15,286 nt of DNA, from assembly GCA_016840425.1 (NCBI GenBank), contig JAEOSI010000029.1, positions 1 through 15,286 of the forward strand, read 5' to 3'. Shown piece by piece: positions 146 to 7,531 of this stretch. How positions within the stretch are numbered: position 1 is the first letter of the stretch; each line of letters opens with the position of its first letter. The notes beneath the pieces are model-generated. The model made no database searches. It was not told the origin of the DNA and saw nothing but the letters and a program-made list of their open reading frames with translations. A program made the position numbers and the translations under genes. Source of the stretch: Candidatus Wukongarchaeum yapensis (GTDB taxonomy: Archaea > Asgardarchaeota > Wukongarchaeia > Wukongarchaeales > Wukongarchaeaceae).

Positions 146-357
146 AAACACAAAATAGAAAGATGAAGGTTTTAAATTAAAAATTAGATATTTAAAAAAC
201 CATTTTTAGACACACAAAAGCTTAAAAACAGAAAAAACAAAAAACAACAAGCAAAAAATTCATAAACAATATAAAAATACACAAATAAGAACATAAGCGA
301 GCGCAATAAAAAACACAAAAAACACAAAAAACTTAAAAAAAGCTTAAAAACAAAAAT

Positions 358-362
358 GGAGG
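358..362 (+). promoter_or_regulatory. Shine-Dalgarno (GGAGG) for alba
   Basis: GGAGG lies 8 nt upstream of ATG 371, supporting 371 rather than 464 as the alba start. Confidence 0.75.
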
Positions 363-370
363 CATGACAC

Positions 371-697
371 ATGGCAAAAGAAAGAAGCGGTGCTGATAAT
401 ATCGTATTCATAGGAAACAAGCCGGTAAAGAGCTAGCGGGATAATATCTTCGCTGTTCGCCGTATGAATTATGTGATGGCTGCATTGCAATTGCACATGC
501 AGGGAAATGACACGGTTATTTTAAAGGCGCGAGGTAGAGCTATCTCACATGCCGTAGATGTTGCAGAGATTACGCGCAATAGGTTTTTGACAGAGTTCGA
601 AGTGAAGAATATTGAGATCGGCACAGAAGTTGTAGAGAATGAGAATAGGAAAAGCAATGTATCGGCGATTAGCATAACGCTTGGAAAGAAATCGTAG
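371..697 (+). CDS. albA: DNA/RNA-binding chromatin protein Alba, spliced: join(371..428,465..697), 96 aa
   Basis: Exon 1 reads [19 protein letters not shown]; exon 2 reads [10 protein letters not shown]...[18 protein letters not shown]...IEIGTE...NVSAISITL. Joining them gives the Alba signature IG(N/K)KPVMNYV...[14 protein letters not shown]. 58+233=291 nt, or 96 codons plus stop. Confidence 0.93.
429..464 (+). other. 36-nt archaeal BHB (tRNA-endonuclease-type) intron in alba
   Basis: Central helix C423-G462, G424-C461, G425-C460, U426.G459. 3-nt bulges AAA(427-429) and UAU(463-465), closed by C422-G466 outside and G430-C458 inside. The intron forms a hairpin over 430-458 and contains an in-frame TAG at 434-436. 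Cleavage after the 2nd nt of each bulge gives CCG GTA A|TG AAT (P-V-M-N). Confidence 0.88.
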
Positions 698-834
698 ACG
701 CTGGAGTTTTTTAGTTGGCTTGGGTTGGGCGGATGTCCTCTGGTGTTTTGTTACACTGGTAGGGTCTCCTACCCCCTATTGTTATTTTTCATTTTTCCTG
801 TTTTTTCGTTTTTTAGTGCAGGTTTTCGTTATTT

Positions 835-1602
835 TTATTTTTCTTTTAAGAGTGTTTTTAGGGTTGTAAGGGTTTCTTTGGCTTCGTTTTTGCTTGTTAT
901 TCCTACGGCTATTGCTTTTACGTTTTTTTGCATTATAGCATGTTTTAGGGCTTCTTTTATGGTTGTTTTGGATTCTACTAGGGTTTTCATTGCTATGACT
1001 GTTTTTTTCGTTTTTTCGATCCATTGTAGTACTTTTGGGGTGTCTTTTTCGGTTAGGTAGCCAGAAATGTTTATGGGAAGCATTATAAGTCCATATTTTA
1101 ACTCTTCGTAGTTTTTGTCGAGCCATGGGAGGGTTTTTGCGGGTTCGTGGCTAACTAGTCCGGGAGTTATGCCTGTTTCTTTTATTTTGTTGATCCATTT
1201 CTTTAGAAGGTAGGGGTTGCGTTTGTCAGTAATAGCCCCGTGTATCAGGATGGCTTGTGGGTCTAGTGATTCTAAGGTTTCTAAGCTTTCTTTAATATTG
1301 TTGGGTAATAGAGATCCAACTATTGCAATTTTTACGTTTGTTTCTTTTCTTGCCATTTCGATAGCCTCGACTATGGTTGGGAAAGGTATTAGCTGTACTG
1401 CAGGAACGCCAAGTTTTACAGCTTCTATAAATATTTCAGCCATCTTTTCTGGATAGTTTAGAAATTTTTCTCTGTATAAGTAGGCTTTTTCTTTAAATTG
1501 TCCTGCGCCAAAAAAGGGGGAAGTGCCGATAAAAACGCTTGGAAGAATAGTTTTTTCTGCTTTTATGAGGGGTACTTGTGATTGTTCTTGGAAAGGTTTC
1601 AA
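835..1602 (-). CDS. Aldo/keto reductase-like (TIM-barrel) conserved archaeal protein, 255 aa
   Basis: Long ORF containing IGTSPFFGAGQF, ILIHG, GLVSHEP, MLPIN..GY and VIAMKTL, which follow the AKR-like layout (GxsH, PxN, iAMK). TTG start is uncertain. Confidence 0.7.
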   Translation of the reverse strand: MKPFQEQSQVPLIKAEKTILPSVFIGTSPFFGAGQFKEKAYLYREKFLNYPEKMAEIFIEAVKLGVPAVQLIPFPTIVEAIEMARKETNVKIAIVGSLLPNNIKESLETLESLDPQAILIHGAITDKRNPYLLKKWINKIKETGITPGLVSHEPAKTLPWLDKNYEELKYGLIMLPINISGYLTEKDTPKVLQWIEKTKKTVIAMKTLVESKTTIKEALKHAIMQKNVKAIAVGITSKNEAKETLTTLKTLLKEK

Positions 1603-5470: not shown

Positions 5471-7531
5471 TTGCGTGGAGATGGTTATTTGAAAAAAAGG
5501 AGGAGTTTTTCTTTATTTTTTTCTTTTCTTTTGTTTTCAGTGGTTATTTTAACTGGCTTTACTAATCCGGTGAATGTTGAAGGATTGGATGATAGTGTTC
5601 CAGCTATTGGTGCTGATAGGTGTTGGGAAAATTTGGACATTACGGGGGGAGGGGTAAAGGTGGGGATAATTGATACAGGGATTGATTGGAAGATACCTGA
5701 CTTTTATAAGCCTGATGGTGGCACATACGATTTAAAAACTTATACCATAGGCAGTGAACAGTATTATTATGTTGATATGAATGAGAATGGGATTAAGGAC
5801 TTTGGAGAATCTTTACTTTGGGTTGCTTTCGACGCATCGTCAGGATACTTGCCAGATAAGGATTGGCTCGTGAGGGATGAGAATGAAGATTCGGATTGGG
5901 CTTTAGGAGAAGAAGATGCTTTTCTTTGGGATGGAAGTAGTAGCGTTGTTACGAGGCTGGGAACTTGTAAAGTGTGGAAGATTTGGGACCAGTCTACTGG
6001 AAGCTACTGGCATCGTGGTGTTAATCTCACTTATGACGATCCTTTTGGCAATTCAACTGAGACAGATTATGATGGTCATGGAACACATGTTGCAAGCATC
6101 GTATGTGGTGGCCAAATATCACCTGTAAGAAGGGAGTATGTTGGCGTGGCCCCTGATGCTGAAATAATCTTTGTTAAAGTCGGTAGACCGGGCTCATATA
6201 CGTGGGATGACGCTATAAAAGATGTTATAGATGGTATAAAGTATTGCGTGAATGCGGGAGCAGATGTTATATCTATAAGTTTGGGTTTTGAGACGTGGCA
6301 GTTTTGGGACGGATCAGATGACGTGGATAGAGCAGTAGAATGGGCGTATAGTAGGGGGGTGCCCTGCGTTGTTGCTGCTTCAAATCAGGCGGATAATGAA
6401 CAACATTGGTATTACCCCTCAGTTACAAATAATAGTAGGATAGGGTTTATGGTTGAAGGGGATACTATTTATGATGAAGTTCTTTTCACGATTTTATGGC
6501 GTAATAAAGCTACGAGCATGAATTTCACCCTCCATAATCCCTCAGGAGGAAGCGTAGCGATTTCTCTTCCCTCTTCACCACAAAATACTACCTGGCAGAC
6601 AGGATTGTTAGTTGGAGGGGGTTGGACAGCCTATACGATGGAGTATAGGCAGAAGGTTTCTCCAAGGGACACCGTTCGTGTAGATGTGAATATTACGAGG
6701 GATGGTTCGGATATAGAGACAGGGAATTGGTATTTTAATGTTAGTGAGATTTCGGATGAGGAGTCGGTTCATGCAGTTGCGTATGACTATAGGAGTTATA
6801 ATGTTACGATGCTTGATCATGTTACACCACATTATACTTTGACATCTCCTGCTACAGCAGATCACGCGATAACAGTGGCTTCTTATAACACGTATCTTCC
6901 TGAAGGTTATCCGGGGGATGTGGGAGATATTTCCTTTTTTAGTAGTGTGGGACCGAGGATAGATGGTGGTAAAACTGTTACAATAACTGCACCTGGCATG
7001 TTTGTTTTTGCCTCTGTTTCTAATGATGCGGATTATGGACAAGGTAGTGGACTTATTGGTTGGGTTGGTTATGCGGGGACTAGTCAGGCTACACCTCATG
7101 TTGCAGGAACTATAGCGCTTATGTTGGAAGGAAACAATACTTTGAAAGGACGCCCTGCTGATGTTTACAAGATTTTGATAAACAACACGATAGTTGATGA
7201 ATATGTAGAGAATGAGGGGAGTGTTCCTAATGATTATTGGGGTTACGGGAAGCTTGATGCTTATAATTCGGTTAGAAGGTCTATGGGAATGGAGAGAGTG
7301 GAGTGGTGGACAGGTGACGGGGATGACGAAGTTAGTTTTGAGGATATTTTAAGCGTTTTGATAGTGATGGCCTTGTTTATCGGGTTTGTGTGGATGATTG
7401 CCAGGAGGAGGAGGAGGAGAGGAAAGGAATATTATTATTCCAGACCTTCTGTGGCTTATTGTTGGAATTGCGGAGCAAGCTTGAGCCCAGATCAAAAATA
7501 TTGTACTCATTGTGGAAATAAGTTGAGGTGA
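5471..7531 (+). CDS. Membrane-anchored S8 (subtilisin-family) serine protease with C-terminal zinc ribbon
   Basis: Catalytic triad D68 (IIDTG), H203 (DGHGTHVAS) and S538 (GTSQATPHVAG); oxyanion N305 (AASN). N-terminal signal or anchor; C-terminal TM helix, then RRRRRR, then CxxC-x10-CxxC. The true start may be TTG 5489, downstream of GGAGATGGT. Confidence 0.92.
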   Translation: MRGDGYLKKRRSFSLFFSFLLFSVVILTGFTNPVNVEGLDDSVPAIGADRCWENLDITGGGVKVGIIDTGIDWKIPDFYKPDGGTYDLKTYTIGSEQYYYVDMNENGIKDFGESLLWVAFDASSGYLPDKDWLVRDENEDSDWALGEEDAFLWDGSSSVVTRLGTCKVWKIWDQSTGSYWHRGVNLTYDDPFGNSTETDYDGHGTHVASIVCGGQISPVRREYVGVAPDAEIIFVKVGRPGSYTWDDAIKDVIDGIKYCVNAGADVISISLGFETWQFWDGSDDVDRAVEWAYSRGVPCVVAASNQADNEQHWYYPSVTNNSRIGFMVEGDTIYDEVLFTILWRNKATSMNFTLHNPSGGSVAISLPSSPQNTTWQTGLLVGGGWTAYTMEYRQKVSPRDTVRVDVNITRDGSDIETGNWYFNVSEISDEESVHAVAYDYRSYNVTMLDHVTPHYTLTSPATADHAITVASYNTYLPEGYPGDVGDISFFSSVGPRIDGGKTVTITAPGMFVFASVSNDADYGQGSGLIGWVGYAGTSQATPHVAGTIALMLEGNNTLKGRPADVYKILINNTIVDEYVENEGSVPNDYWGYGKLDAYNSVRRSMGMERVEWWTGDGDDEVSFEDILSVLIVMALFIGFVWMIARRRRRRGKEYYYSRPSVAYCWNCGASLSPDQKYCTHCGNKLR

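Follow-up and report, generated by a model that had tools for sequence, protein, structure and literature searches.

A Probable Bulge-Helix-Bulge Intron in the alba Pre-mRNA of an Asgard Archaeon

Introduction

Alba is a chromatin and RNA-binding protein. The Asgard archaeon considered here, Candidatus Wukongarchaeum yapensis, has two alba genes, and one of them, near the start of the 15,286-nt stretch of DNA analysed in this study (the window), does not read through: an ORF of 21 amino acids (371-436) terminates at a TAG codon, and an ORF of 77 amino acids in the same frame (464-697, MNYVMAAL...) holds the remainder of the protein. How, if at all, is a complete Alba made from this locus? A first-pass annotation had proposed that a 36-nt insert between the two coding parts represents an intron of the bulge-helix-bulge (BHB) type, removed from the mRNA by the splicing endonuclease EndA.

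Protein-spliced introns in archaeal protein-coding genes are represented in the searchable literature by one case, that of the crenarchaeal cbf5 pre-mRNA (Watanabe et al. 2002; Yoshinari et al. 2006; Yokobori et al. 2009, PMC2738675). Where it takes stock of BHB motifs, a 2020 report gives the motif as known “in one mRNA” and adds one Haloferax substrate (PMC7714728), and a structural paper of 2025 refers, in its mRNA-intron passage, to nothing beyond the cbf5 work. That the first-pass annotation knew of no described alba intron agrees with our full-text literature searches, in which a published alba intron was not found; since the coverage of these searches is incomplete, this is to be read as “not found” and not as “never published”.

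Results

Organization of the Interrupted Gene

The features of the locus are listed in table 1. As the first-pass annotation had read it, a 36-nt insert with an in-frame TAG splits the motif KPV/MNY. The 77-amino acid ORF matches the Pfam Alba profile (PF01918) with an E value of 1.6e-15 over profile positions 12-65, and because the match begins only at position 12, the N-terminal part of the Alba domain is missing from that ORF. Excising 429-464 joins CCG GTA A to TG AAT (predicted spliced junction CAAGCCGGTAATGAATTAT) and yields an open reading frame for a 96-amino acid Alba. From residue 1-10 to its end this product is colinear, and gapless across the junction, with uninterrupted Asgard Albas (e.g., NKPVMNYV in L030), and it comprises a full-length Alba domain.

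Table 1. Features of the interrupted alba locus (coordinates are positions in the window)
Feature	Position	Strand	Basis and remarks
Shine-Dalgarno-like GGAGG	358..362	+	8 nt 5' of exon-1 ATG; read from sequence
alba exon 1	371..428	+	19 codons and first base of Met codon, phase 1
Central helix 5' strand CGGU, exon bases	423..426	+	MFE fold, motif script; covaries with 3' strand
5' bulge AAA	427..429	+	Predicted cut 428/429
Putative BHB intron, 36 nt	429..464	+	In-frame TAG 434-436; inner hairpin 430-458, AAU loop
Central helix 3' strand GCCG, intron bases	459..462	+	MFE fold, motif script
3' bulge UAU	463..465	+	Predicted cut 464/465
alba exon 2	465..697	+	TG of Met codon, then NYVMAALQ...GKKS; stop 695-697; Pfam Alba E 1.6e-15
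T6 tract	709..714	+	12 nt past stop; read from sequence; possible archaeal terminator

A GGAGG also precedes the alba ATG of the orthologue in a same-genus genome (G001), at a similar distance, and inspection of the sequence ahead of the internal ATG 464 found no GGAGG-type box. The stretch upstream of alba (200-370) is low-complexity, A-rich sequence in which GCTTAAAAAC-like boxes recur (220-229 and 343-352); these boxes may be TATA-like promoter elements. The neighbors of alba are panB and, downstream, a 255-amino acid ORF on the minus strand (835-1602) that has no Pfam match at E 1e-5; no homing-endonuclease gene was found adjoining alba. Farther along the window, 5471-7531 on the plus strand encodes a subtilase (Peptidase_S8) that, unusually, has a zinc-ribbon at its C terminus.

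Geometry of the Predicted RNA Motif

An outer helix, a 4-bp helix, a bulge and an inner helix, in this order along each strand, with cuts after the second bulge base, make up the canonical archaeal tRNA-intron (37/38) arrangement. The BHB motif is also described in a preprint on Asgard tRNA introns (bioRxiv 10.64898/2026.10.13.758758). At the alba locus, both the MFE fold of 420-468 and a motif script reproduced the BHB that had been proposed, with a CGGU/GCCG helix (423-426/459-462) and bulges AAA (427-429) and UAU. The inner hairpin 430-458 with its AAU loop was reproduced as well; it has two single-base bulges, at 434 and 449, that the first-pass annotation had left unmentioned. The outer closure by C422-G466 is possible yet weak, being a lone pair that the centroid fold replaces by 418-419/465-466, and the distal helix that had been placed at 409-413/469-473 forms at 408-412/472-476 in a longer fold. 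Under a strict hBHBh' check the intron-side helix (430-458) is good and the exon-side helix amounts to one C-G pair or to 418-419/465-466; the predicted motif thus appears to fit the relaxed HBh' class and not the strict one. Its fold energy is close to that of shuffled sequence (z -1.35 and -0.92 for two folds).

That the cuts regenerate the junction with no adjustment had been called unlikely by chance. A strict motif, defined by four central pairs (GU counted as a pair), a 3-nt bulge on each side and no fewer than 4 bp of inner helix, occurs 312,341 times on both strands of the 2.16-Mb genome, and when 3 bp of inner helix suffice the 327-nt gene contains 22 instances. The BHB shape is very common by chance and is not significant by itself. 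Only one of the 22 instances restores the reading frame, however, and it is the one that excises exactly the non-homologous insert; at one prescribed pair of positions the motif is expected with a frequency of ∼1e-3 ((6/16)^7 to (6/16)^8), in agreement with the 6-33 matches observed per ∼13,500 position pairs. Beyond chance, too, is the coincidence of the cuts with insert boundaries set independently by homologues and by an intron-less allele, and its repetition at several independent introns: the boundaries equal the BHB cuts exactly here and at six further intron/lineage combinations. Because the bare motif is so abundant, our argument rests on its placement and on comparison across genomes. 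A census of this genome for strict BHB motifs that join reading frames found no excess, the counts being the same as for frame-shifted decoys, and when a codon-usage score was added the best threshold gave 39 against 27-34 for decoys, so that the method does not discriminate.

Independent DNA and an Intron-less Allele

In two other studies of marine sediment (X2, X3), contigs are identical to the window over positions 334-760. The reality of the insert, on which the first-pass proposal depended, is therefore well founded, since such identity between independent studies rules out an assembly artefact. Contigs in two further runs (X6 and X8, that in X8 being 2,729 nt long) carry a related allele, ∼94% identical in the flanks, that skips 424-462 and has TGT in its place, making it a net 36 nt shorter; X6 contains both the intron-bearing and the intron-less allele. 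The intron-less allele reads AAG CCT GTT ATG AAT (K-P-V-M-N), which is the product predicted from the BHB save for two synonymous third-position changes, and 8 of its 10 differences in exon 2 fall at third codon positions. The cuts proposed at 428/429 and 464/465, said to regenerate CCG-GTA-ATG-AAT, thus give an open 96-amino acid Alba with the same junction, at the protein level, as a naturally uninterrupted gene.

Several classes of element were considered for the insert and set aside. At 36 nt it falls far short of the hundreds of nucleotides of a group I or group II ribozyme core, and window positions 200-900 gave no Rfam match at E values up to 1. There is no second copy of the insert elsewhere in the genome, and a repeated mobile element was rejected on that ground. 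An intein was rejected for the reasons given below for other readings of the locus.

Tandem Introns and Selection in a Same-Genus Genome

The alba orthologue of G001 (L005; contig C14, minus strand, ∼1808-1720) is 96% identical in protein sequence to that of the window and carries, at the same site and in the same phase, a 41-nt insert of unrelated sequence. This first intron has a CUGU/ACAG central helix in place of CGGU/GCCG and an inner helix of 9 bp, and the synonymous change of CCG to CCT on the exon side has its counterpart in a C-to-A change in the intron. Twelve nucleotides downstream lies a second BHB intron of 30 nt (central helix AUGU/GCAU, bulges UAA and AAU, 9-bp inner helix), and each base of the 12-nt micro-exon between the two (TGAACTATGTTA) is used in one of the two BHB motifs. 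The tandem BHB structure is the MFE fold of this region (z -5.09). Removing both inserts restores the Alba reading frame. The compensatory changes in related alba loci that had been suggested as a check were found here, and across lineages the central helices at the first site (CGGU/GCCG in the window, CUGU/ACAG in G001, CGAC/GUCG in families f18 and f7) change on both sides or consistently at three of their four pairs.

These inserts bear on the least credible of the alternatives we considered, namely that the ribosome bypasses the insert by hopping of the gene 60 type, that the stop codon is recoded or read through, or that the insert is an assembly artefact. It is true that the window's insert, at 36 nt, is in frame and has CCG and GTA on both its sides. 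Landing on GTA 462-464 or CCG 460-462 would, however, leave the Alba frame, and matching take-off and landing codons that keep the frame, as in T4 gene 60, are absent. Read-through would add 12 unrelated residues found in none of the homologues, and in G001 the two inserts (41 + 30 = 71 nt, not a multiple of 3) shift the frame, so that read-through cannot rescue the gene there. An artefact is excluded by the identical contigs described above.

Comparison of the spliced coding sequences of the two genomes (G000, that of the window, and G001) reveals 27 synonymous and 5 non-synonymous codon changes, with 28 of 35 differences at third positions. Exon 1 by itself has 7 synonymous and 3 non-synonymous changes, and a stretch of 12 residues in it is identical at the protein level. 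The synonymous excess in both exons indicates that they share a single translated frame and are both subject to purifying selection, which argues decisively against a pseudogene and against translation of the second part only.

According to the latter alternative there is no splicing, and the 77-amino acid ORF from ATG 464 is translated into an Alba lacking the first beta-strand, with exon 1 left as a relic or coding for a separate 21-amino acid peptide. ATG 464-466 does open an ORF that still scores as Alba, and gene callers would annotate it so. We nevertheless regard this reading as very unlikely: besides the selection on exon 1, the GGAGG precedes 371 and not 464, it gives no account of why the BHB helix covaries, and G001 has no equivalent internal MNYV ORF, since the Met of MNYV is there on the 12-nt micro-exon, with another stop-containing insert after it. 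More improbable still is a decaying alba pseudogene with a chance hairpin-forming insertion, the work being done by the paralogue on contig C254. That paralogue is intact and BHB-like shapes are indeed frequent by chance, but the codon differences to G001 are those of a gene under constraint, the sequence has no other lesion, the locus is kept in several independent metagenomes, and a chance insertion does not account for boundaries that coincide with BHB cuts in one intron/lineage combination after another.

Other Asgard Families and DPANN

In families f18 and f7 a divergent alba paralogue (∼45-50% identical) has an interruption at the same codon as the window's gene and in the same phase. 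All 6 genomes of f18 have a 30-nt intron there (CGAC-AAA-...-GUCG-AAU), and in f7 one genome (G007) has a 27-nt intron with the central helix CGAC/GUCG. Two other f7 genomes (G017, G055) are intron-less and read CCG ACA ATG AGT, which is the predicted junction. A 30-nt BHB at a second site, within QGA/GD, is present in 3 of the 5 genomes of f16 (GCGC-AGA-...-GCGU-AAG), and the remaining two read GGC GCA GGC GAT, again the predicted junction (intron-less relative loci compared across f7 and f16: L160, L161; L162, L163). At two further f7 loci (L158 in G081 and L159 in G075) the Alba alignment starts at the Met/Val of MSYV and no exon 1 was found in the part that aligned; these may carry a longer or different intron.

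All Asgard alba introns examined (three sites; L005, L034-L040 and the window) are in phase 1 and have A-rich bulges, although a phase shared by n = 3 sites carries no statistical meaning. Except in the second intron of G001, where it has 2 bp, the exon-side helix consists of one G-C pair in each of them. A query with exon 2 across the phylum (251 genomes) returned uninterrupted orthologues as all of its best 150 matches.

Similar inserts occur in DPANN (71 genomes, the phylum of a Nanoarchaeota-titled record), where 3 or 4 of the first 30 alba loci have stop-containing inserts of ∼30-36 nt between GKK and PAMSYV. These resemble the window's insert in gene, in position between beta-strand 1 and helix 1, in size (∼30 nt) and in BHB shape. 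The one that was mapped, L134, is a strict BHB of 30 nt whose exon helix has 7 bp and whose predicted cut lies in the second Lys codon (GKK/PAM) in phase 2, whereas the Asgard introns are in phase 1 and mostly have a single pair. As the cut in L134 lies 8 nt upstream of the Asgard site and in another phase, the DPANN and Asgard introns are neighbors and do not share one insertion site.

Splicing Machinery and Other Introns in the Genome

The genome of the window (277 contigs, 92% complete, 2.16 Mb) encodes RtcB (E 2.4e-176) and has one EndA ORF of 203 amino acids (L003:735-1343, G000:C113) with both the catalytic domain (PF01974, E 1.2e-27) and the N-terminal domain (PF02778, E 3.2e-19). Among solved structures its best relative is the alpha subunit, the catalytic one, of the (alpha-beta)2 enzyme of Aeropyrum pernix (3p1z_B, E 1.7e-49), and the match to the Methanocaldococcus jannaschii homotetramer (1a79, E 1.5e-23) is far weaker. 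The Crenarchaea-specific loop (CSL) and Lys44 are what allow EndA to cut relaxed and misplaced motifs and give it a broad substrate range (PMC3241643); the alignment of the present EndA is gapless through this loop, with Lys at the positions of both K44 and R46, and the genome appears on this basis to encode the broad-specificity type. The protein also has a Lys/Glu-rich N-terminal extension of ∼25 amino acids without counterpart in the crenarchaeal structures. A beta subunit was not found in the 92%-complete assembly by Pfam, and tblastn with the alpha subunit gave only chance matches. Given that 44 of 60 Asgard genomes have two EndA paralogues (bioRxiv 10.64898/2026.10.13.758758), its absence here may reflect incompleteness of the assembly.

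Introns are not confined to alba in this genome. Aragorn recognized only 18 tRNA genes, 16 of them with introns, and non-canonical introns have probably broken up most tRNA genes too far for the program to recognize them. The gene for aIF2-alpha (L125, G000:C70, reverse-complement 1227-1263) contains a strict 30-nt BHB (UCGG-AAA-9-bp stem-CCGA-AAA), the removal of which restores the conserved HISEIA motif. The TruB_N match of cbf5 (G000:C78:8532-8873) lies inside an uninterrupted open frame of 350 amino acids.

The presence of RtcB is also relevant to a reading in which EndA cuts the transcript and the exons are inefficiently rejoined, making the element a switch that destroys the mRNA and not a constitutive intron. 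A precedent for the first step is the cleavage by EndA of a BHB in the HVO_1309 mRNA of Haloferax volcanii, in the account of that substrate in PMC7714728. We give such a switch even less weight than a pseudogene: a ligase is at hand, the frame is restored exactly at each site, the same protein is encoded by the alleles that lack the intron and selection acts on both exons, all of which argues for the joined product as the target of selection.

Discussion

We consider it highly probable, at roughly 0.9, that 429-464 is a genuine BHB (tRNA-type) intron in the alba pre-mRNA, a conclusion drawn from sequence comparison. It is the comparative evidence that decides, that is, the intron-less allele, the covariation of the central helix and the selection on both exons, and not the BHB shape. 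In the proposed mechanism the transcript would fold with the exon's CGGU paired to the intron's GCCG, leaving the two bulges on opposite strands beside a 29-nt hairpin. EndA would then cut after the second base of each bulge, and RtcB would ligate the exons to ...AAG CCG GUA/AUG AAU... and probably circularise the 36-nt intron, allowing translation from ATG 371 into a normal 96-amino acid Alba. With an exon helix of one pair the motif would be a relaxed one, and presumably requires an EndA of broad specificity. The first-pass suggestion that Alba production would depend on the tRNA splicing machinery has to be divided: it probably applies to the interrupted gene and it does not apply to Alba overall, for which the uninterrupted paralogue on C254 is available.

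The closest known system is the cbf5 intron. Both are short, protein-spliced introns of a protein-coding gene with a BHB formed partly of exon sequence, both are polymorphic for presence among relatives, and both appear to be tied to a hetero-oligomeric, broad-specificity EndA. The cbf5 intron belongs to Thermoproteota and the alba intron to Asgard archaea, and alba, unlike cbf5, has several intron positions within its first ∼80 nt and one relative with two introns and a 12-nt micro-exon. Splicing of cbf5 has been shown experimentally, whereas we infer the cleavage and ligation of the alba transcript from sequence. In those respects that can be tested, the alba intron has the properties of a cbf5-type mRNA intron in relaxed form, and would represent a new host gene and a new phylum but not a new mechanism.

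Asgard archaea also have non-canonical introns in their tRNA genes (Valentin-Alvarado et al. 2024, PMC11291895; bioRxiv 10.64898/2026.10.13.758758). In the intron passages of these papers, such introns are alike in lineage, in presumed enzyme and in size (tens of nucleotides), and share with those of alba their many positions, repeated gain and common relaxed motifs. Their hosts are tRNA genes, to which all intron passages of PMC11291895 refer, whereas the host of the alba intron is an mRNA in which the cuts must also keep the reading frame. The text of the preprint contains neither “mRNA” nor “Alba”, and “protein-coding” only in an unrelated use. The HVO_1309 mRNA of H. volcanii (Schwarz et al. 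2020, PMC7714728), as described in the part of that report devoted to it, is likewise an EndA substrate within an mRNA; it is a BHB processing site, whereas the alba element interrupts a conserved domain and the protein needs its removal.

Taken jointly, the loci in Asgard archaea and DPANN suggest a broader reading that we offer tentatively, at somewhat short of an even chance. It holds that protein-spliced introns have landed in alba again and again (in at least four places within ∼80 nt), that turnover is rapid, with relatives having 0, 1 or 2 introns and with unrelated introns at one site, and that housekeeping mRNAs (alba, aIF2-alpha) routinely need EndA and RtcB in a set of Asgard archaea. 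If true, this would point to an active process that inserts introns into protein-coding genes of the prokaryotes most closely related to eukaryotes; introns might, for example, reverse-splice into abundant RNAs, with reverse transcription and then recombination as the next steps.

The alba intron would take mRNA splicing by the tRNA machinery beyond a crenarchaeal curiosity. One practical consequence is that gene callers would systematically truncate such genes, here to an ORF of 77 amino acids. The several positions, the fast gain and loss, the micro-exon and a further split housekeeping gene (aIF2-alpha) form a wider lead, and alba itself would be a small and testable substrate for the study of intron gain and loss in the lineage nearest to eukaryotes.
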